A stretch of 64,000 nt of DNA, taken from the NCBI GenBank assembly GCA_031548905.1, contig JAVBQP010000034.1, positions 46,746 through 110,745 on the forward strand. The letters are read 5' to 3'. The stretch comes from Desulfovibrio sp. Its GTDB lineage: Bacteria; Desulfobacterota; Desulfovibrionia; Desulfovibrionales; Desulfovibrionaceae. The notes beneath the pieces are model-generated. The model was not told the origin of the DNA, did not search any database, and was given only the letters and a program-made list of their open reading frames with translations. Positions 19,656-31,236 of the stretch are shown here, in pieces (position 1 is the first letter of the stretch; each line of letters starts with the position of its first letter). Made by a program: the position numbers and the translations under genes.

Positions 19656-20507
19656 TCAAGAGCGGGGGAATCCGCCACGCGGCAGGAGCGCCGTGAAGGC
19701 GGCGACGGCTTCGGCCAGATTGCCGGAGTTGTCGATTCGGACCAAATTGGGCGGGTCTGCCGGCAGCGCGGGGGCGTGGGTGAGGCGCTCCTCAATCTGC
19801 TCCGCGGTTTCCCTGCCCCTGGCCAGGAGCCGCTCGCGCAGGATTTCCGGGCGCACGGCGATCAGAACGGGGAGCAGGCCGGGATAGCGGCGCAGGGCCT
19901 CCGGCAGGTAGGCCCGTGAGCCGTTAAGCACCACCGTCCACCCCTGAGCGAGACGAGAATCGATGTCCTCGGCCGCGATGCCGTAGCTCAGGCCGTGGCT
20001 TTCCCAGTCCAGGGCGAAGGCTTCGGCCTCGCGTTTGGCCGCGAATTCGCCGGGGGCCAAGGCGATGTGATCTTCCCCGCCGGCATCGGCCGGTCGGGTA
20101 ATGTGGCGGCGGGCAAACCACACCCGCGCCTCGGGCGCTTTGAGGGCGGGCAGTTCGGCCGCCCCGCGCAGCAGAGAGTCCTTGCCGCACCCGGACGGAC
20201 CCATAACATAGACCAGGGTGCCGGGGAGAACACGCGCGGCGTCCGGCTCTTCAAACGGGATTTCCTTGAACGGCACCCGCTCGCGCATACCGCGCAGGAA
20301 TTCGCGGACTTCGCGCTCCTGGTTGGGGGAAAAACGGATTTGCAGCACCGCGCCGAAGCGGTCCACCACGCTCATCAAGCCCAGGTTGTCCGCCGCCTCG
20401 AGCAGGAAGCGAAACATACCCACCCGCGCCGGCTCGATGGCCACATACAGCCGGCCCGAGCGCCGGGGCACAGGCAGAATTTTGCCGCGCCGGGGACGCT
20501 TTCTCAT
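19656..20507 (-). CDS. DUF4911-like N-terminal domain fused to ribose 1,5-bisphosphokinase PhnN-like P-loop kinase
   Basis: ATG at 20507 overlaps the upstream stop (ATGA). The C-terminal 180 aa match my recollection of E. coli PhnN (MGPSGCGKDSLL..HITR...EDHIAL..LNGSRAYLP..ARGRE). The N-terminal about 90 aa resemble the small DUF4911 proteins of Desulfovibrio. Confidence 0.8.
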   Translation of the reverse strand: MRKRPRRGKILPVPRRSGRLYVAIEPARVGMFRFLLEAADNLGLMSVVDRFGAVLQIRFSPNQEREVREFLRGMRERVPFKEIPFEEPDAARVLPGTLVYVMGPSGCGKDSLLRGAAELPALKAPEARVWFARRHITRPADAGGEDHIALAPGEFAAKREAEAFALDWESHGLSYGIAAEDIDSRLAQGWTVVLNGSRAYLPEALRRYPGLLPVLIAVRPEILRERLLARGRETAEQIEERLTHAPALPADPPNLVRIDNSGNLAEAVAAFTALLPRGGFPRS

Positions 20508-21814
20508 GCCGGTTCCTTTGTCGCCCTGACCAGCAACACGCCGTTTTCCAGGCCCACCGGAGCGGCCGCGAACAGCCGCCCGGCCGGCGCGGGGCCGAGA
20601 ACGCGGCACTCCGTGTAGTATTCGTTGATGCCTTTGCGGCCCCCGTCGGTGCTCTCCGGCGCGGGCACGACCTCGGGGAGATCGAGTTGGCGTTCCAGAA
20701 ACCGGGCCTTTTTCTCCGTAGCCAAGGCGCGGAGCTCGGCGGCGCGGTGTTTTTTCTCCTCCGCCGGAACGGGAAAGGGCATGGCTGCCGCGCGGGTGCC
20801 GGGCCGGGAGGAAAACGGAAACACATGGGCGTAAGTCAGGGGCAGCTCCCGGCACAGGGCCAGAGTCTCGGCGTGTTCCGCGCCGGTCTCGCCCGGGAAC
20901 CCGGCGATCAGGTCCGCCCCCAGGCCCCAGACGGGCCGGATATCCGCCAGGGCGCGCAGAAAGCCCGGCAGGGAGGCCGGGTCGTAATGGCCCCGGCCCA
21001 TACGGGCGAGCACTGTGGGGCTGCCGCTTTGCAGGGAAAGGTGCAGGTGTGGGGCCACAATTCGGCAACGGGCCAGGGTTTCCAGGGCTTTTTCGCCCAG
21101 TTGGCCGGGCTCGAGGGACCTCAGGCGCAGGCGTAGCCGGCCGGCCCATTCCGGGGCCAGGGCCGTGTCCAGGGCCAGGAGCAGATCCCAGAAATCCTGC
21201 CGGGGCTCAAGATCCCGGCCGTATAGGCGCAGGTTGATGCCGTTGATGCCGATTTCCGGGAACCCGGCCTCGGCCAGACGTAGGGCCTCGGCCAGGGTGT
21301 CCGGCGCGGGCCGGGAGCGGGAAGGCCCGCGCGTGGAGGGAACGATGCAATAGGCGCAGTGGTGGGAGCAGCCGTCCTGAACCTTGAGCACGGCTCTGGC
21401 CCGGTGGTAGCCGGAAATGGACAGGGGCGGGAAGGCGTCCGCATCCGCTTGCGGCGGGGCGGGCGTTTCTCCCAGGGCGAGGGCCAGCAGGGCGGCCGGG
21501 TCGGATTTGAGGGCTCGCCCCGCAAGCACGGGCGGGCCGGGAAGGTCACCCGCCCCGTCGAGGACTTCGGCGGCGCAGCCGAACAGGATGATTCGGGCCA
21601 GGGGGGCTTCGGCATGGAGCCTGCGCACGGCCCGGCGGACGTCGGCCACGGCCTTGGCCGTTACCGCGCAGGAGTTGACGAACAGGCAATCGGCCCCGGC
21701 CGGGGTCGCGGCCTCTTGGGCGCCAAGGCCGAGCCAGGCTTCGGCCAGGGCGCGGCTTTCATACTGGTTGACCTTGCAGCCAAGGGTCTGCACGAAAAAA
21801 CGGGGCGCGGCCAC
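20504..21814 (-). CDS. Radical SAM methylthiotransferase, MiaB/RimO family (MtaB-like tRNA modification enzyme)
   Basis: N-terminal UPF0004 motif TLGCKVNQYES and radical SAM motif CSHHCAYC. GTG at 21814, 7 nt after the GGDEF stop, is preferred over the track start at 21916, which overlaps the upstream gene by 95 nt. Confidence 0.85.
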   Translation of the reverse strand: MAAPRFFVQTLGCKVNQYESRALAEAWLGLGAQEAATPAGADCLFVNSCAVTAKAVADVRRAVRRLHAEAPLARIILFGCAAEVLDGAGDLPGPPVLAGRALKSDPAALLALALGETPAPPQADADAFPPLSISGYHRARAVLKVQDGCSHHCAYCIVPSTRGPSRSRPAPDTLAEALRLAEAGFPEIGINGINLRLYGRDLEPRQDFWDLLLALDTALAPEWAGRLRLRLRSLEPGQLGEKALETLARCRIVAPHLHLSLQSGSPTVLARMGRGHYDPASLPGFLRALADIRPVWGLGADLIAGFPGETGAEHAETLALCRELPLTYAHVFPFSSRPGTRAAAMPFPVPAEEKKHRAAELRALATEKKARFLERQLDLPEVVPAPESTDGGRKGINEYYTECRVLGPAPAGRLFAAAPVGLENGVLLVRATKEPA

Positions 21815-21821
21815 GGGCGGC

Positions 21822-22754
21822 TCAACGGCTGCAGACGCGGTCTTTGCCCGTGCGCTTGGCGTCGTACAGGGCGTTGTCGGCGCGCTCGATGAAGCTTTCG
21901 GGAGTTTCCCCGCCAATGTAGTCGGTGCAGCCGATGCTCACGGTGATCGGGGGCAGGGAACCGAAGGTGTGCCCGGCGATGTCGCGGCGCAGCTTTTCCG
22001 CCAGGCGCAGGGCCTGGGCGCCGCCCGAAAACGGGGAAAGCACGGCGAATTCCTCCCCGCCGTAGCGGGCGGGCAGGTCGTCGCGGCGCAGGGAGGCGCG
22101 CAACAACCGGCCGAGGGCGCTCAGAACGGAGTCCCCGGCCAGATGCCCGTGTGTGTCGTTGACGCGTTTGAAATCGTCGATGTCGAGCAGGAGCAGGGCC
22201 AGAGGCGCGCCCGTTTTGGCCGAGTGGGCCGTGGCGGTGCGCAGCGCCTCCATGAAATCGGCCCGGTTGTGCAGGGTGGTCAGCTCGTCAAAGCGGGACT
22301 TGTGTTTATACACTTCCAGGGCCCCGGAGATCATCCGGCGCTCCAGCAGGTGTTCCCGAGCCTTTTGCAGGATACGCGAGCGGTCCGCGAAATCGTCGCT
22401 CAGGTAGCGCAGCACCAGCAGTTGCCGGCCGCGCACCGAAAGGGCCGTGACGATCAGGGCCTTGCCTTCTTCCACGCCGTCTTCCTGCCAGGTGCCGGAG
22501 GTCAGGGAGCCGCCGCTCCCTTCCTCAAAAAAGTCTTCCGCGTCGTCCAGAAAAAAGCGGAGCATGTCCGAACGCTCCCAAGGCGTGACATTGGGCGCTT
22601 CTGGCGTGCCGCCGAACATATTGCGGTAAAAGGAGGGCATTCGCCCGAAAAAAACATATTCCCGAGGGCCGACGCGCCGGAGAACGGCTATGGCCAAAGA
22701 TTCCAGAACGGCAAGGGCGAGTTCGCCGTCATCGATGCGCTCGTTATCCCTCAT
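21822..22754 (-). CDS. Diguanylate cyclase (GGDEF domain) with an uncharacterised N-terminal sensor-like domain
   Basis: RYGGEEFAVL active-site motif with an RRDD (RxxD) I-site 5 residues upstream. The start overlaps the GTPase gene stop by 11 nt. Confidence 0.9.
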   Translation of the reverse strand: MRDNERIDDGELALAVLESLAIAVLRRVGPREYVFFGRMPSFYRNMFGGTPEAPNVTPWERSDMLRFFLDDAEDFFEEGSGGSLTSGTWQEDGVEEGKALIVTALSVRGRQLLVLRYLSDDFADRSRILQKAREHLLERRMISGALEVYKHKSRFDELTTLHNRADFMEALRTATAHSAKTGAPLALLLLDIDDFKRVNDTHGHLAGDSVLSALGRLLRASLRRDDLPARYGGEEFAVLSPFSGGAQALRLAEKLRRDIAGHTFGSLPPITVSIGCTDYIGGETPESFIERADNALYDAKRTGKDRVCSR

Positions 22755-23244
22755 GCAGCATGGCCTTGGTCAGAGCAATAAACGAGTCGTTGACCGCCAA
22801 ACCGGTTTTCGCGCTGGTGCGGGTTACGGCCACACCGGCGGCCTCCAACTCGGCCAGGCGGTCATCGGAAATTTCCCAGGCGCCGGCCAGGTCGGCCTTG
22901 TTGACCAGAAGCACGTTCGGCACGTCGCCGATCAGATTCAAGGCCATGTCGCGCAAGCTGAGAGCTACATCAAGGGTTTCTTTGCGGGTGCCGTCGGCCA
23001 CCGTGAAAAAGCCCATCGCCCCGCGCAGGTAGGAAATATTGACGTCAACGTAATCATCTTTGCCTTCCAGATCCCAGAGAACCAGGGATACTTCCCGCCC
23101 GTCGACGGTCAGCGTTTTTTTGCTGATTTTCACGCCCACCGTGGATAGGTAGCGGTCGGTAAAGATGGAGTGGACGTATTGCTGGACCAGTGCGGTCTTT
23201 CCGACGGCAAAGGAGCCGAGCATACATACTTTTTTACTGATCAT
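22744..23244 (-). CDS. Ras-superfamily small GTPase (Rab/Ras-like)
   Basis: ATG at 23244 gives 166 aa with G1 GSFAVGKT, a G2 Thr (STVG), G3 WDLEG, G4 NKAD and G5 SAK. Confidence 0.85.
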   Translation of the reverse strand: MISKKVCMLGSFAVGKTALVQQYVHSIFTDRYLSTVGVKISKKTLTVDGREVSLVLWDLEGKDDYVDVNISYLRGAMGFFTVADGTRKETLDVALSLRDMALNLIGDVPNVLLVNKADLAGAWEISDDRLAELEAAGVAVTRTSAKTGLAVNDSFIALTKAMLHEG

Positions 23245-23475
23245 GAGTCGTCCGTAGCTATTTCGGCCGCTTGGCCGCGCCGGGCCAAACATTCCCGGCG
23301 TGGAAGCATTGTTCGCGAAAACGCCGGAGGGGGGTACCGTATTATTGCTTATATGCCTGTATGCCGTCGGTATCTAGACGTATCCATTGAGAAAATTCGG
23401 CGGCAATGGTATACTGGAATCATTTGATTTACTTTATCTAGCTCAAAACGGTGTACAGCACAAGCCACTTCTGGA

Positions 23476-25329
23476 CTATTTCCCTAAGATATCGCGCGAG
23501 GCGTCGGCCGCCCGGATAAGCCGCACCCGCAGTTCGATGCGCCGGTCGGCCTGCTCGGGGCCGGTCGAAGGGGCGCCCCCGGCGGCGTAGTCCGCGCCCA
23601 TGCCGTAGATGGAAACCGGCAGCGCGGAGCCCTTGGCGTAAAGCATGGCCGCCAGGGTTCTGGCCCTGGCCTGGCTGATCTCATAGTTGCGCTTGGCGGA
23701 ACCGACAGCGTCCGCATGGCCGTAAATGGTCACGCCGGCGGACACACCCATTTGCCGGGCCAGATTTTCCAATTCCACCAACTTGTCCACGGCGTTGAGC
23801 AGAACAGGCAGATCCGCCGGAACAGGCATGTCGCCGCCCAGGGGGAACTCCACCCGGGCGCTTTCCACCTCGGCCACCAGCCGGTGCAGCTCGTCGGTGC
23901 GCGGATCGTGCAGGTCTTTGGTCTCCACGCGCTTGACGCCGGGCAGGGCCAGGGCCTCTTGTCGGGCCTCCAGAGTCCAGTCCAGGGGGGCGGTGCCGGA
24001 AAGGGAGAGCACGCCGTCTTCAAAGCGCAACAGCACGGTATCCGGCGGAGTGATCTTGTCGCGCACCCGCTCGGCCACCAACTCGGGCTCGTACGAGACA
24101 TAGGGAACGGCATCCAGCACAAAGTCGCCCTTGGTGAACCCGCTTGCGGCCAGTACGGAGTACGGATCGCGGGCCAGTTCGTCGCACAGGATCTGAATCC
24201 GCCAGGGCTTTTTCAGGCCCTCGCCGGCGGAGGTGACAGGCAGCAGGCCGGGCTCGCGGCGCAGGAGCTCCACCCCTCGGAGCATCTGCCCGTAAGTCAG
24301 AACCTGTTCCGTCTCGGCCGTGAGCCGGGCCATGAGGTGGGCTTTTTCGGTTCGGACCAGCTCGTAGCGCCACCAACCCAGGCCGGCGATCAGGGCGGCG
24401 CCCAGACAGACGGGCAGGAGCTTGGCCCACAGGGGCAGCGGCTTGCCTTCATCCACGAAGCGGGCCGAGAGGCAGTCCTCAAGCCGCCTGTGGACAGCCA
24501 GGAACGGCGAGGTGTCGCCGTTGAAGGAGGCCAGATCCCCCGCGCACTCCATGAGCATGAGTTCGAAATTCGTCTGAATGCGGGAACGGAAATCCGCCGG
24601 CGGCGTGCCGCGCACCACGCAGGCCAGGAACGCCTGGGGGCTTTTTTCCATGTAGATGGTGAATTCGCCCAGGCGAATGGAATCCAGCTCTCCGCCGCCG
24701 CCGGTGAAACAGTCGCGGACAAAGTCCTGAATGGCCGTGAGCATGGCCGAAACCAGATCGGCGTCCTGGGTGTCCACCCCGTCGTTGACCGCGTGGGCCA
24801 GCACCAGGCCGGTTTCGCCGTGGATGAAAAAAACCTGCTCCACCCGGTAGACCAGGGTGTGTAGGAGCACAATCTCGCTGAAGGGCTTGCCCGAGCGCAG
24901 CGCTTCCCATCGCCAGCGCAGGCCTTTCCAGGAAAAGGACATTTCCAGGCTTTTGCTCAGGCTTTCGAGCATGGTCCGGAAGGCTTCCGCTATGGATCGC
25001 CGGATTGCCGGGCCCATGAGCGGAAAGAGCGCCCCGGCGAAATCCATGGGCCTTTTGCGCAGGGAGTCCTTGATAATCTCCTCGACCGTGGGCTCAAGGG
25101 CCTTGCCCAGGCGATCGTCTTTGCCGCGCAGGAGGATGGCGTCGGCAATGACCTCGGCCACATCGCGGGCTTGCGACTGGGGATCGTCCAGCCGGTTCTT
25201 GAGGCTTTCCAGCAAGGCGATTTCGCGGGCGAACAGCAGCCCGCGCAGCGTTTCCAGGTCGGCGTCGACCGGGATGTTCCCGGAAGCGCCCTGGCGCGTT
25301 TCGCCCGGCTCGGGCTTATTCGTCGGCAT
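23476..25329 (-). CDS. Single-pass membrane protein: cytoplasmic coiled-coil plus Roadblock-like region, periplasmic BON-like domain and OmpA-family peptidoglycan-binding domain
   Basis: TM helix LLPVCLGAALIAGLGWW in the middle of the protein. C-terminal OmpA-like GHADAVGSAKRNYEISQARARTLA. BON-like LRFEDGVLSLSGTAPLDWTLEARQEALALPGVKRVE. The start is either ATG 25329 or the track start at 25374. Confidence 0.85.
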   Translation of the reverse strand: MPTNKPEPGETRQGASGNIPVDADLETLRGLLFAREIALLESLKNRLDDPQSQARDVAEVIADAILLRGKDDRLGKALEPTVEEIIKDSLRKRPMDFAGALFPLMGPAIRRSIAEAFRTMLESLSKSLEMSFSWKGLRWRWEALRSGKPFSEIVLLHTLVYRVEQVFFIHGETGLVLAHAVNDGVDTQDADLVSAMLTAIQDFVRDCFTGGGGELDSIRLGEFTIYMEKSPQAFLACVVRGTPPADFRSRIQTNFELMLMECAGDLASFNGDTSPFLAVHRRLEDCLSARFVDEGKPLPLWAKLLPVCLGAALIAGLGWWRYELVRTEKAHLMARLTAETEQVLTYGQMLRGVELLRREPGLLPVTSAGEGLKKPWRIQILCDELARDPYSVLAASGFTKGDFVLDAVPYVSYEPELVAERVRDKITPPDTVLLRFEDGVLSLSGTAPLDWTLEARQEALALPGVKRVETKDLHDPRTDELHRLVAEVESARVEFPLGGDMPVPADLPVLLNAVDKLVELENLARQMGVSAGVTIYGHADAVGSAKRNYEISQARARTLAAMLYAKGSALPVSIYGMGADYAAGGAPSTGPEQADRRIELRVRLIRAADASRDILGK

Positions 25330-26008
25330 CGTCGACGGTTTCTTCCATGCCGCCCTGGCCGGACTCCAGCTCAAGGGTCCACTGCCCGCTGAGCTTGACG
25401 GCCACTTCGGTCAGCATGGAAGAGAGGCTGGAGCGGTATACCATGTCCTGGCGAATTTGGGCCGCGGTCTTGGAGAGAACGGACAGGGATTCCCGGTACT
25501 TTTCCTCGATTTTATCCGAAAGCCCGCCGCTTTCGGCCAGGAGCAGGTCGCGCAGATTCCGCTCGGCGTCATCGAGCGAATCGGTCAGGCGCGAGACCTT
25601 GCGATCCATGGCATCGTTCAGGGCGGCCAGATCTTTGGTCAGCTTGGCCAGAGCCTCGGCGCGCTCGCGCTGTTCGGTCTTGAGGGCTTCCGCCCGCTCG
25701 GCGCGCTCGGTTTCCACGGCTTCCGTCCGCTCGCGTTGCTCGTCTTTGAGGGCCGACTCCAGGGCGCTCTTTTCCTCTTTGAGCCGGGCCAGCAGCGAGG
25801 CCGTTTCGCTTTTCATGAATGTTTCCAGGGAATCCAGGCGCTTTTTCATGGAGTCGCGGGCGTCGGCCACCTCGCGCGTGAAGCGTTCTTCCCGGCGCTG
25901 GAAACGGGTTTCCATGTCTTTCAACTGCGCGCCGAACAAAAGTTCGCGCACCTGCTCCATGGGGGCGGTTTCCGTTCCCGACCCGGAATCGCCGGCACGT
26001 TTGGACAT
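25316..26008 (-). CDS. Coiled-coil protein (Glu/Arg-rich heptad repeats)
   Basis: ATG at 26008 with a GAGAGG Shine-Dalgarno. Repetitive EQRERTEAVETERAERAEALKTEQRERAEAL. Its N-terminal motif VRELLFGAQL is related to LRGLLFAREI of the next gene. Confidence 0.7.
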   Translation of the reverse strand: MSKRAGDSGSGTETAPMEQVRELLFGAQLKDMETRFQRREERFTREVADARDSMKKRLDSLETFMKSETASLLARLKEEKSALESALKDEQRERTEAVETERAERAEALKTEQRERAEALAKLTKDLAALNDAMDRKVSRLTDSLDDAERNLRDLLLAESGGLSDKIEEKYRESLSVLSKTAAQIRQDMVYRSSLSSMLTEVAVKLSGQWTLELESGQGGMEETVDDADE

Positions 26009-26199
26009 AAATATACCTCTCGGAGAATGGGGAGTTATCAATAAAACACAGCTTGATTATGCTACCCTTCAATGTCGGCATTGGCAAGTATTCGGAGAGA
26101 AACGCCAGGGTTTGCCGCGGAGGATCCTGCCCCGCACGGGTTTTGCAAATCCCAAACTGGTGGGCGGACTTTGCCCGCACACCCCCACCGGAGGCACCC

Positions 26200-26700: not shown

Positions 26701-27504
26701 CTATTCCGTCGGAGGAGGTGTCTCCCGGCCCAGGAAGCGCAGCAGCCCGTCCAGAATCGTGTACGGGTGCGGCACGCAGCCGGGAATGAACAGATCCACG
26801 TCCAGGTGCTCGGCCGCGCCGTAATTCCGCTGTGGGGAGTTCTGCCCTTCTTTGGGAGCGAAGACCCCGCCGGAAACCGCGCAGGCCCCCACGGCAATGA
26901 CCACGCGGGGTTTGGAGATGGCCCGATCCGCCTTGATCAGGGCGTCGTGCATGTTGCGCGGCACCGTGCCGGAAATGACCAGGGCGTCCGCGTGCCGGGG
27001 CGAGGCCGTGTAGTCCATGCCGAAGCGCGGCAGGTCGAAGACGATGGTCCCGAGCACGTTGAGGTCGGCCTCGCAGGCCCCGCAGCCCGCGGCCGAAACC
27101 TGGCGCAGCTTGAAGGAGCGGGTGAAGGCTCCGTCCACTTCGCGCGTGGGCTCGACATGCGGCGGTCCGTCGTTGCCGGGGGAAAGGATCAGATCCTCGC
27201 GCCGGCTTGCCGCCAGGCGCCAATCGCGGCTGAAGCGCAGGGCTCCGGCCGGGGCCGTCTCGGCGCAACGGCCGCAGAACAGACAGCGGCCCATGTCGAG
27301 GGCGGGAAGGGCTCCGCTCAGGCTGAGGGCTCCGGAGGGGCACCCGGTCACGGCCGCGGCCCAATCGACCGGGGTCAGGCGGGCGCAGACGGTCGCGTCA
27401 AAAGCCGGCCGGCCGCGATAGCGCTCCGGCAACACCGGGGCCGAGGCCGGGAAGGGCACGGTCCGGGTCTTGCGGCGCAGGCGTTCAAAGAGAATGTCCA
27501 GCAT
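26701..27504 (-). CDS. Group-4 hydrogenase-like small subunit (NuoB/HycG-like) with an N-terminal ferredoxin-like extension (EhrS-like)
   Basis: C-terminal NuoB-like motifs GCGACEAD, GACAVSGG and PGCVPHP. The N-terminus has only one complete CxxCxxC (CLFCGRC) plus a distal CP. Confidence 0.85.
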   Translation of the reverse strand: MLDILFERLRRKTRTVPFPASAPVLPERYRGRPAFDATVCARLTPVDWAAAVTGCPSGALSLSGALPALDMGRCLFCGRCAETAPAGALRFSRDWRLAASRREDLILSPGNDGPPHVEPTREVDGAFTRSFKLRQVSAAGCGACEADLNVLGTIVFDLPRFGMDYTASPRHADALVISGTVPRNMHDALIKADRAISKPRVVIAVGACAVSGGVFAPKEGQNSPQRNYGAAEHLDVDLFIPGCVPHPYTILDGLLRFLGRETPPPTE

Positions 27505-27516
27505 AGGCGATTCCGC

Positions 27517-29049
27517 TTACAGGTCGTGGCCGCAGTACGACAGGTTGAAGCTTTTGTTGCACAGGGGGAAGTCCGAGATCTGCCGGCCGCGCAGGGCCAG
27601 GGCCAGACCCTCCCAGTTGTGGAAAGAGGGATCCACGACCTTGTAGTGATCGAAGCGACCGGCCGCGTCGGTCAGGGCCAGGTGCAGCACCTCGCCGTGC
27701 CGGGCCTCCACCAGGGCCAGGGCCAGATGCTCCGGGGCAATGGTGCGCGGCCGCTCGGCCAGGGGCGGGGTGCCGCCCTCCTCTTGGGGCAGGAGTTCCA
27801 GAACCCGCCGGCAGTAGGCGGCTGAGGCCATAATTTCGGCATGGCGGACCCGGGCCCTGGCGTTGACGTCGCCGTAGGGGAACAGGGAGAGTTCCGGGGG
27901 GGTGGGCACATCCCGCAGGGGGTGGCTGTGGCGGATGTCGCGCGGCAGGCCGCAGGCGCGGGCGGGCGGGCCGACCAGGCCGAGAGCCGCGGCTTCCTCT
28001 TTGGAGACCCCGCCGGTGCCGGAAAATCGGGCCATGACCGAGGGCGAATCCCACAGCAGGCGTACTGAACCGTCCACCTGGGCCACACAGACGTCCAGGC
28101 GGCGGAGTAAGGTATCGGCAAGCTTCCGATCCAGGTCGAAACGAACGCCGCCGGGGGTGAGCAAGCCCCGGCCGAAGCGGCTGCCGCAGATCTCGGCGGT
28201 TATGTTCAGCCAGTCGCCGCGCAGGGCGCCGCAGTGGTTCAGGGTGGAGAGAAAGCCCACGTCGCCGGCCAGGGCGCCGAGATCCCCGGTGTGCGAGGCC
28301 AGACGCTCCAGCTCCAGGGCCAGGGAGCGGATCATCTGGCCGCGCGGCGAGGGCGGGGCGTCGCCCAGGGATTCCAGCACCGTGCAATACGCGAAGGAGT
28401 GGGCCACGCTCGAGTCGCCGCACAGGGTTTCCATCAGAGCGAGAGTGCGCCCGTCCGGGCCTCCGGCGAGCATGGCTTCCACGCCCCGGTGGTGGTAACC
28501 CAACGAGATTTCCAGGTGGAGCACGGTCTCGCCCAGGCATTGGAAGCGAAAATGCCCGCACTCGATGATCCCGGCATGGATCGGCCCCACGGCGACCTCG
28601 TGGATCTCTTCGCCGTCCACACTGAAAAAGTTCGCCACGCCCACGTCCGGGCCGTCGGGGCGCTCGAAACGCACCGGGTTCAGGCGCGGGTGCCCCACGG
28701 GCACAAGACCGAAACGCTCGTGATTCTCCCGCTCGAACAAATGCAGGGCCGGGATGCGCGGGGTCAGGGAGGGGTATTCCTTTTCCACCTCGCAGGCCAC
28801 GGCAAAGATGGTTCCCTGAGCGTCGTCGATGATGATCGCCAGCAGGGTGAAGACGTCGGCTTTGCCTTTGTCGGGCAGGGCGAACAGGGCCGCGACGCGC
28901 CGGCCGGCGTCGACCTCCCGGCCGAGGAACAGGGCGAAGAACGAGAATCCGTAACGGGGAACGTCCGCAAAGGGAACGGCCCGGCCGTTTTCCAGGCGCA
29001 GGGGGGGCGGGCCGGCGGCGGCCGAATCAAAGAGGGTGACGGGTTCCAT
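27517..29049 (-). CDS. Group-4 [NiFe]-hydrogenase-like large subunit, NuoC-NuoD fusion, with degenerate NiFe-binding motifs (EhrL-like)
   Basis: HAGIIECGHFRF and GYHHRG blocks are present. The L1 motif reads CGDSSVAH (canonical CGxCxxxH) and the C-terminal motif reads SFNLSYCGHDL (canonical DPCxxCxxR). Confidence 0.85.
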   Translation of the reverse strand: MEPVTLFDSAAAGPPPLRLENGRAVPFADVPRYGFSFFALFLGREVDAGRRVAALFALPDKGKADVFTLLAIIIDDAQGTIFAVACEVEKEYPSLTPRIPALHLFERENHERFGLVPVGHPRLNPVRFERPDGPDVGVANFFSVDGEEIHEVAVGPIHAGIIECGHFRFQCLGETVLHLEISLGYHHRGVEAMLAGGPDGRTLALMETLCGDSSVAHSFAYCTVLESLGDAPPSPRGQMIRSLALELERLASHTGDLGALAGDVGFLSTLNHCGALRGDWLNITAEICGSRFGRGLLTPGGVRFDLDRKLADTLLRRLDVCVAQVDGSVRLLWDSPSVMARFSGTGGVSKEEAAALGLVGPPARACGLPRDIRHSHPLRDVPTPPELSLFPYGDVNARARVRHAEIMASAAYCRRVLELLPQEEGGTPPLAERPRTIAPEHLALALVEARHGEVLHLALTDAAGRFDHYKVVDPSFHNWEGLALALRGRQISDFPLCNKSFNLSYCGHDL

Positions 29050-29061
29050 GTCCGCCTCCGA

Positions 29062-30555
29062 TCAGGGCAGCAAGGCCGGGTAGGCCAGGGCTTCGGCGAC
29101 CCGGCGCAGGGGTTCGGGCACATACAGGCCGAGCAGCAACACCAGGGCCAGGAGCACGGCCGGGGGCGCCCAGAGCAGGGGCGATTCCGTCGGCATCGGC
29201 TCGATGCCATAGGGCGCCTTGCCCCGGCACATGCGCAGGGTGGGGGTGATCATGCCCACGAACACCACTCCGAGCAAGGCCAGAAAGGCCGGGGCCAACC
29301 AGACCGGGCCGGAGAGCCACAGGCCCTGGAGCACGGAGATTTCGCTTCCGAACACGGCGAAGGGCGGCGCGCCGGTCAGGGCCAGGATGGCGATAAGCCA
29401 GAGAATGCCGGTGCGGGGCATGACCTTGACCAAGCCGGTGACGTCGTGGCTCGATTTGGTATGGTACTTGGCCAGAATATTTCCGGCCAAAAGGAAGATC
29501 GCGCCTTTGACCAGGGAGTGGTTGATCATGTGCAGGGACCAGCCGACTCCGGCCTCGGCCCGGGCGGGGTCCAGGCCGTAGGTCGCGCCCAGGCCGAGCA
29601 GGAGAATGCCCATGTGCTCGACCCCGGAATAGGCGGGCAGGCGCTTGAAATCGCCCTGGCCCACTATGAACAGGGCGGCGATCAGCATGGAGAACAGCCC
29701 GAAGGCCGTGAGCAGGGTGGAGGCGAAATCTCCCAGCCCGGCGGCCAAGCCGACCTGGTAGGAGCGGAAAATACCCAGAAAGGCGCAGTTGAGCAAAGCC
29801 CCGGAAAGCAGGGCCGAAACGAGCGAGGGCGCTTCGGAGTGGGCGTCGGGCAGCCAGGTGTGCATGGGGGCCACGCCCATTTTGGTGCCGTAGCCGATGA
29901 ACAGAAAGACGAAGGCGGTCTTGAACCAGCCGGGGTGGACCTTGGCCGCGGCCTGGCGCAGGGCGCCCACGCTCATGTCCACCGGGCCGTTGCCCCCGGT
30001 CTGCATGGAGATGTCCAGAAGCAGGTTGCCCACCAGGGCCAGGGCAATGCCCACGGAACAGATCATCAGGTACTTCCAGGTGGCTTCCAGGGAACGCCGG
30101 TGCCGGTGGAAGTAAATCAGGGGCGCGCTGACCAGGGTGGTGGTCTCGATACCCACCCAGAGCAGCCCGAAGTGCCGGGTACAGGCCACAAGCACGGCCG
30201 CGGCCAGGAACAGGAGCAGGCAGCCGGTAAAGGTGGCTTCCGGCGCGTTGGTGAAGTGCAGGCCCTGCTGGAAGTCCTTACGCCTGCCGGAATCCTCGTC
30301 CCGCAGATAGGCCGTGGCGTAAATCGCGGCGGCCAGGAACAGGGTACAGGTGATCGACAGGACCAGCAGCCCGGCCTGATCGAGGTGGAGCAACTCCCCG
30401 CCGACGCTTGCCGGGGCGCGAAACCAGCAGGCCGCGGCCAGGAGGAACTCCGCCAGGGCCGTGAACAGGAGCAGGCAGCGCCGGGGGCCGTCGGCCTGGA
30501 TGAACCAGGCGGCGAGGGCGGCGGCAAGAGGCAGAAAAATGAGGGCGAGAAGCAT
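29062..30555 (-). CDS. Proton-conducting membrane subunit, NuoM/NuoN/HyfD-like antiporter-type
   Basis: 497-aa polytopic protein with Mrp/NuoM-type motifs (WLPDAHSEAPSLVSALLSG). Confidence 0.85.
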   Translation of the reverse strand: MLLALIFLPLAAALAAWFIQADGPRRCLLLFTALAEFLLAAACWFRAPASVGGELLHLDQAGLLVLSITCTLFLAAAIYATAYLRDEDSGRRKDFQQGLHFTNAPEATFTGCLLLFLAAAVLVACTRHFGLLWVGIETTTLVSAPLIYFHRHRRSLEATWKYLMICSVGIALALVGNLLLDISMQTGGNGPVDMSVGALRQAAAKVHPGWFKTAFVFLFIGYGTKMGVAPMHTWLPDAHSEAPSLVSALLSGALLNCAFLGIFRSYQVGLAAGLGDFASTLLTAFGLFSMLIAALFIVGQGDFKRLPAYSGVEHMGILLLGLGATYGLDPARAEAGVGWSLHMINHSLVKGAIFLLAGNILAKYHTKSSHDVTGLVKVMPRTGILWLIAILALTGAPPFAVFGSEISVLQGLWLSGPVWLAPAFLALLGVVFVGMITPTLRMCRGKAPYGIEPMPTESPLLWAPPAVLLALVLLLGLYVPEPLRRVAEALAYPALLP

Positions 30556-30564
30556 ACGCTTGGC

Positions 30565-31236
30565 CTAATCCCGTAAGCTGGAGAATCGATCCACGTCGGT
30601 GGACTCGAACTCCTGGTGAATGTGATGCACGGCAATGCCCATGACAAAGACGCCCGCCAGGATGTCCAGGAGGATGGTCATTTCCAGCCAGACCGCGTCG
30701 CTTTGGGCCATGGGCACGCCCAGAAGGTAAATGCCGTTTTCCGTGACCAGGTAGCCGAACATCTGCGCCAGGGCTCCCTTGCGGGTGACGATCAACAGCA
30801 GGCCGGTGAAAATCGTCGCTACGGCCACGGGGAAGATCAAGATGAACAACGGGTTGGCCACCGCCTCCAGCCTGCCGTTGAGCCACAGGGAGAATACGAA
30901 GCCGAACAGCCCGGCCAGAACGCACAGGGTGTTGCCGATATATGGCTTGACCGGCGGCTGGGGCGCCAACTGTCTGTAAGTGCGCAGTAACAGCAACGGC
31001 AGCAGGATGCCCTTGACGAAGGTGAACACGGCCGTCACCCCCAGGATATGCCAATCCAGGGGGCCGGAGTATACGGCCAGGGGCATCAGGCCGAGGACGA
31101 AACCCTGCACGGCCAGCAGCCGGATGCACAGGCGCCGGCGCTCGGCCGCGGGCAGGCAGAGGTTGGTCAGCACGATCAGGCCGAGCGCGGTCTGGATCAT
31201 CTCCAGGGAGGGGGCGAGCACGATATCCGCAAGCAC
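30565..31236 (-). CDS. Hydrogenase-4 component E (HyfE)-like membrane subunit
   Basis: 223-aa, roughly 7-TM protein in the position and of the size of HyfE/EhrC. Confidence 0.7.
   Translation of the reverse strand: MLADIVLAPSLEMIQTALGLIVLTNLCLPAAERRRLCIRLLAVQGFVLGLMPLAVYSGPLDWHILGVTAVFTFVKGILLPLLLLRTYRQLAPQPPVKPYIGNTLCVLAGLFGFVFSLWLNGRLEAVANPLFILIFPVAVATIFTGLLLIVTRKGALAQMFGYLVTENGIYLLGVPMAQSDAVWLEMTILLDILAGVFVMGIAVHHIHQEFESTDVDRFSSLRD

Follow-up and report, generated by a model that had tools for sequence, protein, structure and literature searches.

The window, a 64,000-nucleotide stretch of Desulfovibrio sp. DNA (GenBank assembly GCA_031548905.1, contig JAVBQP010000034.1, positions 46,746 to 110,745), carries on its minus strand a four-gene module that is, near certainly from its sequence, a Desulfovibrionaceae member of the Rup1 family of small-GTPase cassettes. 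In order of transcription, the module encodes a cytoplasmic coiled-coil protein, a single-pass inner-membrane protein ending in an OmpA-like domain, a Ras/Rab-like small GTPase, and a GGDEF diguanylate cyclase (Table 1). Because these four components match the published Rup1 description one for one, we identify the locus as a Rup1 cassette. The cassette is real and widely conserved, and its architecture is not new, having been in the literature since 2014. What is new here is the predicted Roadblock/longin fold of the membrane-anchored partner, the PAS-like effector domain of the output protein with its wider range of outputs, a fusion of that domain to a GTPase, and a correction concerning a conserved glutamine. 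The explanation that we favor, with moderate confidence as a whole, is a Rup1 cassette in which a Roadblock-type regulator, a Rab-like GTPase, and a PAS-like effector operate together.

Group 1 Rup GTPases were defined, and their neighborhood described computationally, by Wuichet and Søgaard-Andersen (Genome Biol Evol 2014; PMC4316618). That neighborhood comprises a cytoplasmic coiled-coil protein; a protein combining a conserved unknown domain, an inner-membrane helix, and a C-terminal OmpA domain; the GTPase; and an output protein, typically an enzyme of cyclic di-GMP (c-di-GMP) metabolism or a histidine kinase, whose conserved N-terminal region bears what the paper calls an "invariant glutamine." The GTPases lack the catalytic G3 glutamine, and its supply in trans was a matter of speculation; the actinobacterial conservon was drawn as an analogy, and no Rup had been experimentally characterized as of 2014 (PMC4316618). 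MglB homologues were searched for by BLAST and Pfam, and 0 of 121 Rup GTPases were scored as coupled to Roadblock (PMC4316618). Our own literature search on Rup1 found no functional, structural, or experimental study; later papers use the family solely as a phylogenetic reference group. The original prediction for this locus, made from the sequence alone, had stated that no characterized system with this architecture was known, which stands as far as experiments are concerned and fails for the four-gene architecture itself, published in 2014. Like the published neighborhoods, the locus described here contains the four components and a GTPase without the G3 glutamine. It differs in belonging to the Desulfovibrionaceae with a plain GGDEF cyclase as output, and in that the "unknown domain" is predicted to be Roadblock/longin-like, whereas Rup GTPases were counted there as never Roadblock coupled; that the N-terminal region of the output protein is predicted to be PAS-like, with a glutamine that varies in a wider set; and that the outputs extend to sigma-54 activators, HD-type proteins, and stand-alone domains, as well as a GTPase fusion.

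The cytoplasmic half of the membrane protein provides the central evidence. AlphaFold2 was run on residues 1 to 300 with 47 sequences; the helical N-terminal part was modeled with moderate confidence, and residues ∼150 to 290 were modeled confidently, with a predicted local distance difference test (pLDDT) score of 80 to 97. The latter segment is predicted to form a three-layer α/β sandwich with the topology α-β-β-α-β-β-β-α-α, built from helices at residues 150 to 158, 187 to 207, 247 to 267, and 274 to 286 and strands at residues 159 to 170, 176 to 181, 217 to 220, 223 to 229, and 233 to 241. A Foldseek search against the PDB gave 50 listed matches, all of them longin or Roadblock proteins or complexes with such subunits. 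The top match was Ccz1, from the Mon1-Ccz1 guanine nucleotide exchange factor (GEF) for Rab7 (5ldd_B, E = 2.2e-4); others were an AP sigma protein (9ddt_B, TM-score of 0.70), the Asgard Roadblock3 (9jue), MglB (3t12, 1j3w, and 3t1r), MglC (7ct3), LAMTOR p14/MP1 (1veu), and components of Rag/GATOR/Ragulator, TRAPP, and Fuzzy-Inturned. Many of the proteins matched regulate small GTPases, including the Rab GEFs Mon1-Ccz1 and Fuzzy-Inturned, Ragulator/Rag, and MglB. Judged by the model, residues ∼150 to 290 probably adopt a Roadblock/longin fold, and the guess in the original prediction of a Roadblock/LC7-type fold, MglB being its reference, is borne out to that extent; the segment that it quoted is the best-conserved part of the membrane protein. 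Across phyla the domain retains 45 to 55% identity.

This fold escapes sequence comparison. The domain gave no Pfam match, Robl_LC7 included, at E ≤ 10, and a 22-sequence profile compared with PDB sequences retrieved nothing relevant. The lack of a sequence-level signal explains why the 2014 BLAST and Pfam study scored 0 of 121 Rup GTPases as Roadblock coupled. The N-terminal domain of the output protein (hereafter the N-domain), which has a similar order of strands and helices, served as an internal control and returned a disjoint Foldseek list, consisting almost entirely of PAS and LOV proteins; a relationship between the two domains was also unsupported by hhalign (probability 8%). The predicted domain ends ∼6 residues ahead of the transmembrane helix and so has to lie right up against the membrane on its cytoplasmic side.

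The module is kept together across distant phyla. One genome per species was scanned for relatives of the membrane protein, and 276 genomes were positive, which places the Rup1 cassette in hundreds of species in a single scan. Seventy-nine loci were retained, from Desulfovibrionaceae, Desulfobulbus, Desulfarculales, Accumulibacter, Planctomycetota, Acidobacteriota, and Nitrospira; after a first pass with tblastn, neighborhoods were counted with hidden Markov models on all open reading frames (ORFs), considering only those loci with enough flank. The coiled-coil gene lies upstream of the membrane-protein gene in 73 of 74 loci, the GTPase gene lies no more than 600 nt further downstream in 69 of 76 (median gap, 35 nt), and a gene encoding an N-domain comes right after the GTPase gene in 61 of 71. 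The co-occurrence of GTPase, OmpA protein, and output gene, on which the original prediction had staked its case beforehand, is therefore a conserved property of these genomes. The order is permuted in one locus (L021: GTPase, GGDEF, coiled-coil, membrane protein), and in two others (L005 and L008) the GTPase gene lies ∼3 kb downstream of the membrane-protein gene. In the window itself, the four codirectional ORFs lie where they had been placed; the stop of the coiled-coil gene overlaps the start of the membrane-protein gene by 14 nt, and that of the GTPase gene overlaps the start of the GGDEF gene by 11 nt, the latter as previously noted. We take these overlaps as a sign of translational coupling, in favor of a single module.

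The third gene encodes a small single-domain Ras-superfamily protein (<240 residues) with DxxG and NKxD motifs and a Pfam Ras domain (PF00071, E = 9.5e-27). No bacterial group of the Ras superfamily is closer to eukaryotic Rab/Ras/Rho/Ran than the Rup1 GTPases, and the nearest solved sequences of this GTPase are all eukaryotic Rabs, with Rab23 the best (7.7e-23) and Rab8 and Rab1 also among them. The family yielded 3,385 matches, the best 120 of which are at least 63% identical. The strings proposed as intact G1 to G5 motifs (GSFAVGKT, STVG, DLEG, NKAD, and SAK) are all present, and their key residues, GxxxxGKT, T35, WDLEG, NKAD, and SAK, are conserved in 74 homologues. Two catalytically important positions depart from Ras. 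At the position of Ras Q61, after DxxG, the protein has K62, and the 74 homologues have K (28), E (16), R (13), Q (12), A (2), and H (1), so that the catalytic glutamine is missing here and from most homologues, though not universally. At the position of Ras G12 stands a Phe, as in 62 of the 74. In Ras, Rap, and Rnd, such substitutions at Q61 and G12 lower intrinsic hydrolysis and block GTPase-activating proteins (GAPs) that act by an arginine finger. The absence of Gln at Ras 61 together with Phe at Ras 12 suggests a switch that is likely slow or GTP locked, or one regulated mainly by exchange, sequestration, or localization. As an observation apart, Rab23 is the nearest solved sequence of the GTPase, and two longin-domain Rab GEF complexes, Fuzzy-Inturned (CPLANE) and Mon1-Ccz1, are among the structural matches of the partner domain; the parallel is suggestive.

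Of known systems, MglA/MglB (with MglC and RomR/RomX, in Myxococcus and Thermus) is similar in pairing a Ras-superfamily GTPase with a Roadblock-fold partner, and MglB and MglC are among the Foldseek matches. MglA, however, carries TVPGQ or GTPGQ as its G3 motif and possesses an intrinsic Arg finger, whereas the present GTPase has WDLEGK and a Ser before the G2 Thr (T35). MglB is small, soluble, and recognized by Pfam Robl_LC7, and it acts as a GAP that brings the Gln of MglA itself into position; in the present case the fold forms part of a membrane protein, is invisible to sequence profiles, and faces a GTPase without that Gln. Membership in the MglA/MglB module was rejected, there being no MglA-type G3 motif or Arg and no Robl_LC7 match in any of the four proteins. 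The conservon (CvnA-D/Mfp) is likewise a membrane-associated multiprotein cassette in which a small GTPase is combined with a Roadblock-fold protein and a sensor or signaling enzyme, but there the histidine kinase is a membrane protein, the Roadblock fold is a protein by itself, the GTPase is of the MglA type, and a DUF742 protein is present; the conservon also lacks the OmpA anchor, the coiled-coil protein, and the PAS-like effector domain. The best structural matches of the partner domain are the eukaryotic longin/Roadblock regulators (Mon1-Ccz1, Fuzzy-Inturned/CPLANE, TRAPP, and Ragulator-Rag), and the clients of the eukaryotic longin exchange factors are Rabs, to which the nearest sequences of our GTPase (Rab23, Rab8, and Rab1) belong. 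There is no detectable sequence similarity to those regulators, and the domain described here is a single one, anchored in a bacterium to the cell wall and the inner membrane.

The output protein ends in a GGDEF domain (Pfam PF00990, E = 7.9e-39; NCBIfam TIGR00254, 2.8e-40). The active-site GGEEF (residue 232) and the RxxD I-site five residues upstream (RRDD, in RRDDLPARY) are both intact in the sequence, in agreement with the earlier description of the cyclase. The N-domain that precedes it gave no Pfam match, PAS included, at E ≤ 10, and its profile retrieved nothing relevant from PDB sequences. AlphaFold2, using 142 sequences, modeled it with a pLDDT of 93.8: an N-cap helix leads into a sheet of five strands with two helices, and an exit helix of 30 residues follows. 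Nearly all Foldseek matches to this model were PAS, LOV, or PYP proteins (E of 1.1e-3 to 2.6e-2, TM-score of ∼0.5), among them 7yx0_A (1.1e-3), 3sw1, and 4gcz; short LOV proteins with a Jα helix and the LOV kinase YF1 are prominent in the list. The N-domain is thus predicted to be PAS-like.

An exhaustive HMMER search with the N-domain returned 293 representative clusters; a word-indexed search with the 150-residue domain had found no match, a blank that is no proof of absence. In 125 representatives scanned for partner domains, the domain is accompanied by HATPase_c (54), GGDEF (25), HD_5 (9), Receiver (9), Hpt (6), EAL (1), SpoIIE (1), and Ras (1). Directly after the GTPase gene, an N-domain of ∼140 residues is attached to GGDEF in Desulfobacterota, Accumulibacter, and Planctomycetota; to GGDEF-EAL in L073; to HisKA-HATPase in L068 and L060; and to PAS, a sigma-54 activator, and a helix-turn-helix domain in Nitrospira (L066, L072, L077, and L078). 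In Vicinamibacterales it stands after the GTPase with nothing but a short coiled coil. The single Ras partner is P0284, a 537-residue metagenomic representative in which a Rup-type GTPase (residues 11 to 167), an N-domain (189 to 321), and an HD_5 domain (346 to 510) form one chain. This Rosetta-stone fusion and the strict adjacency of the genes are the best available evidence for physical cooperation between GTPase and N-domain. The link from GTPase to output that the original prediction had drawn for the cyclase thereby gains support, since the N-domain accompanies the GTPase whatever the output and is fused to it in P0284. By this distribution, the N-domain behaves as a module-specific input domain of the Rup1 cassette. 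Many N-domain proteins (L068:10266-10680, P0272, P0274, and others) carry in addition an N-terminal domain of ∼135 residues without a Pfam match, and in L065 (10438-10850) the gene after the GTPase opens with a similar ∼135-residue domain and PAS, without the N-domain; the ∼135-residue domain may be a second, alternative input domain associated with Rup1.

From the gene content, domain identities, predicted folds, neighborhood conservation, variable outputs, and single fusion of GTPase and input domain, we infer the physical interactions, which way the signal flows, and what kind of signal it is, as set out in the following scheme. The periplasmic OmpA-like domain would fix the membrane protein to peptidoglycan, and the membrane protein would hold its Roadblock/longin-like domain directly under the inner membrane. 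This domain, probably dimeric, would bind the Rab-like GTPase together with the coiled-coil protein, which shares a motif with the membrane protein, and would set the nucleotide state or the availability of the GTPase, as an exchange factor or platform rather than as a classical GAP. With no catalytic Gln and with Phe at Ras G12, the GTPase would probably be a slow switch or largely GTP locked. Once active, it would engage the PAS-like N-domain of the downstream protein, and the long exit helix would relay the signal to the GGDEF domain, a dimer, altering c-di-GMP synthesis; elsewhere, the same input domain would drive histidine kinases, HD-type phosphodiesterases, or sigma-54 activators. The envelope-tethered protein may, as the original prediction had it, control the GTPase, as GAP or GEF, and the whole may serve as a trans-envelope sensor. 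Extended to the family, the proposal that Rup1 GTPases work with a cryptic Roadblock/longin domain in a cell-wall-anchored partner, forming a bacterial membrane-tethered switch with c-di-GMP, two-component, and sigma-54 outputs through a PAS-like effector, is a tentative one. If the domain does regulate the GTPase, the MglA/MglB and Rup1 families would fall under one regulatory principle, the eukaryotic longin-domain Rab and Rag regulators would have a bacterial counterpart, and a route would be defined by which a small GTPase governs the synthesis of c-di-GMP as well as histidine kinases and sigma-54 activators. Concrete targets for mutagenesis are the PAS-like input domain and, within it, the invariant Arg133.

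Several observations weigh against this explanation. The Roadblock/longin assignment has a predicted structure as its basis, without sequence-level support, and its Foldseek values are modest (E of 2e-4 to 5e-3, TM-score of 0.5 to 0.7); the PAS-like assignment of the N-domain is weaker still, with model-based matches at E of 1e-3 and above. Roles of the Roadblock-like domain as GEF, GAP, or mere scaffold fit the data alike. Four loci (L031, L032, L039, and L047) have the pair of coiled-coil and membrane-protein genes and no GTPase gene within 8 kb downstream, and nine loci have a GTPase gene that is not trailed by an N-domain. Finally, the AT-rich 231-nt spacer ahead of the GTPase gene, with its conserved block, makes separate transcription of the GTPase-cyclase pair possible, as the original prediction had cautioned.

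The periplasmic side of the membrane protein bears on what the input might be. The protein has 3,124 matches, the best 120 of which are at least 50% identical, and is composed, in order, of a cytoplasmic helical region, the Roadblock/longin-like domain, a transmembrane helix, a periplasmic region, and the OmpA-like domain. Its single-pass topology, as previously described for a protein of ∼617 residues, is supported by one hydrophobic segment at residues ∼298 to 320 (LPLWAKLLPVCLGAALIAGLGWW), which holds the sole 19-residue windows with a mean Kyte-Doolittle value above 1.2. Pfam was run at E ≤ 10 on separate segments, of which OmpA alone was matched; the cytoplasmic helical region gave no Pfam match. 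The OmpA-type domain of the original prediction is confirmed by Pfam (PF00691, E = 7e-7; 30 bits against a gathering score of 27.2) and by matches to the PDB sequences of PA0833-PD (1.5e-6), the Rv0899 C domain (5.8e-4), and OmpA. It contains the motif GHADxxGxxxxNxxISxxRA, here GHADxxG...NYEISQARA, in which H538, D540, N548, S552, and R555 are invariant; the peptidoglycan-binding motif thereby keeps its invariant Asp (D540) and Arg (R555). The "BON-like module" proposed for residues 352 to 505 found no such backing: there was no Pfam BON match even at E ≤ 10 and no match of the profile to PDB sequences, and the likeness is by eye only. With their N-terminal membrane helix, periplasmic region, and C-terminal OmpA-like domain, Rv0899 (OmpATb/ArfA) and MotB-type proteins are comparable, and the Rv0899 C domain was matched; they lack the cytoplasmic part of ∼300 residues with the Roadblock-like domain, and the BON domain of Rv0899 is unmatched by the periplasmic region here.

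A landmark or polarity module, in which an anchored scaffold of membrane and coiled-coil proteins (e.g., at the pole or septum) would localize the GTPase and the cyclase with no periplasmic sensing, would account for the intact peptidoglycan-binding residues of the OmpA-like domain, for the coiled-coil partner kept in 73 of 74 loci, and for a periplasmic part with no recognizable ligand-binding domain (Pfam at E ≤ 10 and PDB sequence profile). By analogy, MglA/MglB and coiled-coil scaffolds in Myxococcus act in this manner, and the Roadblock-like fold is common to the polarity proteins MglB and MglC. Yet residues 352 to 505 are conserved (57% mean column identity, alignment A7) beyond the needs of a spacer, and the outputs are typical signaling enzymes and transcription activators. 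We regard this alternative, which overlaps the sensor explanation and differs from it only in the input, as unlikely.

The coiled-coil protein, which such a scaffold and the proposed switch would share, is rich in E (14%), L (13%), A (11%), and R (10%) and belongs to no Pfam or NCBIfam family, its matches being weak ones of coiled-coil type; neither database has a family for the membrane protein on its cytoplasmic side or for residues 1 to 150 of the GGDEF protein. The motif that the coiled-coil and membrane proteins had been said to share is real and conserved across phyla, opening the conserved part of each. In the former it reads [VI]R[ED][LI]L[FML]GxQ, and R and G are present in all 66 homologues; in the latter it reads LRxL[LI][FLV]xxE, with R in 66 of 67 and with L28, R29, and E36 invariant in alignment A1. 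An hhalign comparison of the two proteins aligned an N-terminal stretch of ∼30 residues (32 residues) and nothing else (probability 12.6%), which amounts to a shared motif and not to demonstrable homology. It is plausible, from this conservation, that the motif forms a common docking helix of the two proteins.

The missing G3 glutamine raises a different possibility, put forward as speculation by Wuichet and Søgaard-Andersen in 2014: that the output protein has, in its N-terminal region, a GAP that gives the catalytic Gln in trans, so that it would regulate the GTPase and not only be regulated by it. The GTPase here has no Gln after DxxG (K62), Gln130 of the output protein is present within a conserved LQxARE motif (here ILQKARE), and R133, three residues further on and invariant in 45 of 45 N-domains, could in principle act as a finger; the Gln is also reported as invariant in the 2014 data set (PMC4316618). 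Among the 45 N-domains aligned here, however, Q (22) and R (20) share the Gln position almost equally, with N (2) and G (1) as rare alternatives, assuming that this is the same alignment column as that of the "invariant" Gln in that paper. In the AlphaFold2 model, the motif sits past the last PAS-like strand, on the long exit helix and not on a loop of the globular domain, and helices leading from PAS domains to outputs carry conserved junction residues at this place. The variability and the exit-helix location together weaken the glutamine-in-trans idea, and 12 of 74 GTPases themselves have Gln at the Ras 61 position. We consider it improbable, and a PAS-like effector acted upon by the GTPase remains the explanation that we prefer.

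The spacer between the membrane-protein and GTPase genes is the one interruption of the module. Most other lineages have this gap closed, the two genes abutting. Here, a 32-nt block directly after the membrane-protein stop, ggcttgtgctgtacaccgttttgagctagata, aligns with three related Desulfovibrionaceae loci (L001, L002, and L043), the rest of the spacer being unalignable; in this clade it may possibly serve the GTPase-cyclase pair as an internal promoter or operator. A consensus scan of the minus strand found no terminator-like or promoter-like site in the spacer, which matches no Rfam family and whose predicted RNA fold is not unusually stable (z = −1.4). By consensus match alone, the only minus-strand promoter-like site is a sigma-70-like one upstream of the coiled-coil gene, a candidate promoter for the whole operon. 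An AT-rich spacer with a block conserved in close relatives, and the four loci that have the first gene pair with no GTPase nearby, are what would be expected of two merely adjacent and uncoupled units, an envelope pair (coiled-coil and OmpA proteins) and a GTPase-cyclase pair with its own promoter. Nonetheless, 69 of 76 loci, spread over distant phyla, have the GTPase gene no more than 600 nt downstream of the membrane-protein gene, at a median gap of 35 nt, and the partner has a fold typical of small-GTPase regulators. Both points make this alternative very improbable, and a separate promoter would in any case be compatible with functional coupling. A MotB/ZorB-like stator or Zorya-like defense component, suggested by weak PADLOC matches (coiled-coil protein to the ZorA tail, 7e-5; OmpA part to ZorB [MotB], 6.7e-4) and by database records that call some homologues "OmpA/MotB," was rejected, since those matches are confined to generic coiled-coil and OmpA segments, the coiled-coil protein has no MotA/ExbB/TolQ-type membrane domain, the transmembrane helix lacks the Asp that MotB-type stators carry, and the GTPase and cyclase gave no PADLOC match.

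Table 1. Features of the Rup1 cassette in the window, in the direction of transcription (positions are those of the window)
Feature	Position	Strand	Basis or detail
Sigma-70-like promoter-like site, candidate operon promoter	26059-26087	minus	TTGCCA-17-TAGCAT, 9/12 consensus matches
Coiled-coil protein gene, first of module	25316-26008	minus	ORF, 230 aa from ATG
Motif VRELLFGAQL of coiled-coil protein, residues 20-29	25922-25951	minus	Conserved N-terminal
Single-pass inner-membrane protein gene	23476-25329	minus	ORF, 617 aa
Cytoplasmic all-helical region, residues ∼20-147	24889-25272	minus	AlphaFold2 helices 22-146, pLDDT 55-75
Motif LRGLLFAREI of membrane protein, residues 28-37	25219-25248	minus	Conserved N-terminal
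Predicted Roadblock/longin-like domain, residues 148-292	24454-24888	minus	AlphaFold2 model and Foldseek
Single transmembrane helix, residues ∼298-320	24370-24438	minus	Hydrophobicity
Conserved periplasmic region, residues 352-505 (formerly "BON-like")	23815-24276	minus	Alignment A7
OmpA-like peptidoglycan-binding domain, residues ∼484-609	23503-23880	minus	Pfam OmpA
Spacer between membrane-protein and GTPase genes, 231 nt	23245-23475	minus	GC 0.51 overall, 0.41 in 5' part
Conserved 32-nt block, candidate internal promoter/operator	23435-23466	minus	Conserved in close relatives
Rup1-type Ras/Rab-like small GTPase gene	22744-23244	minus	ORF, 166 aa
GGDEF output protein gene	21822-22754	minus	ORF, 310 aa
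PAS-like N-domain and long exit (Jα-like) helix, residues 1-149	22308-22754	minus	AlphaFold2 and Foldseek
GGDEF diguanylate cyclase domain, residues 155-306	21837-22292	minus	Pfam GGDEF

The closest related loci are in metagenome-assembled genomes of Desulfovibrio and other Desulfovibrionaceae, and only these share the genes that flank the cassette. Upstream, minus-strand genes at 26701-31236 resemble, by eye, subunits of an Ech/Hyc-type membrane hydrogenase or a complex I-like module. Downstream, 20504-21916 (minus strand) encodes a radical-SAM methylthiotransferase that is MtaB-like (TIGR01579, 8.6e-87); its longest ORF extends over the end of the GGDEF gene. To go by isolate names alone, many of the loci may stem from one metagenome series. 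Metagenome-assembled genomes labeled Candidatus Gastranaerophilales (L012) and Clostridia (L060) contain cassettes that are 50 to 55% identical to those of the Desulfovibrionaceae; their assignment to unrelated phyla could reflect binning contamination or horizontal transfer.

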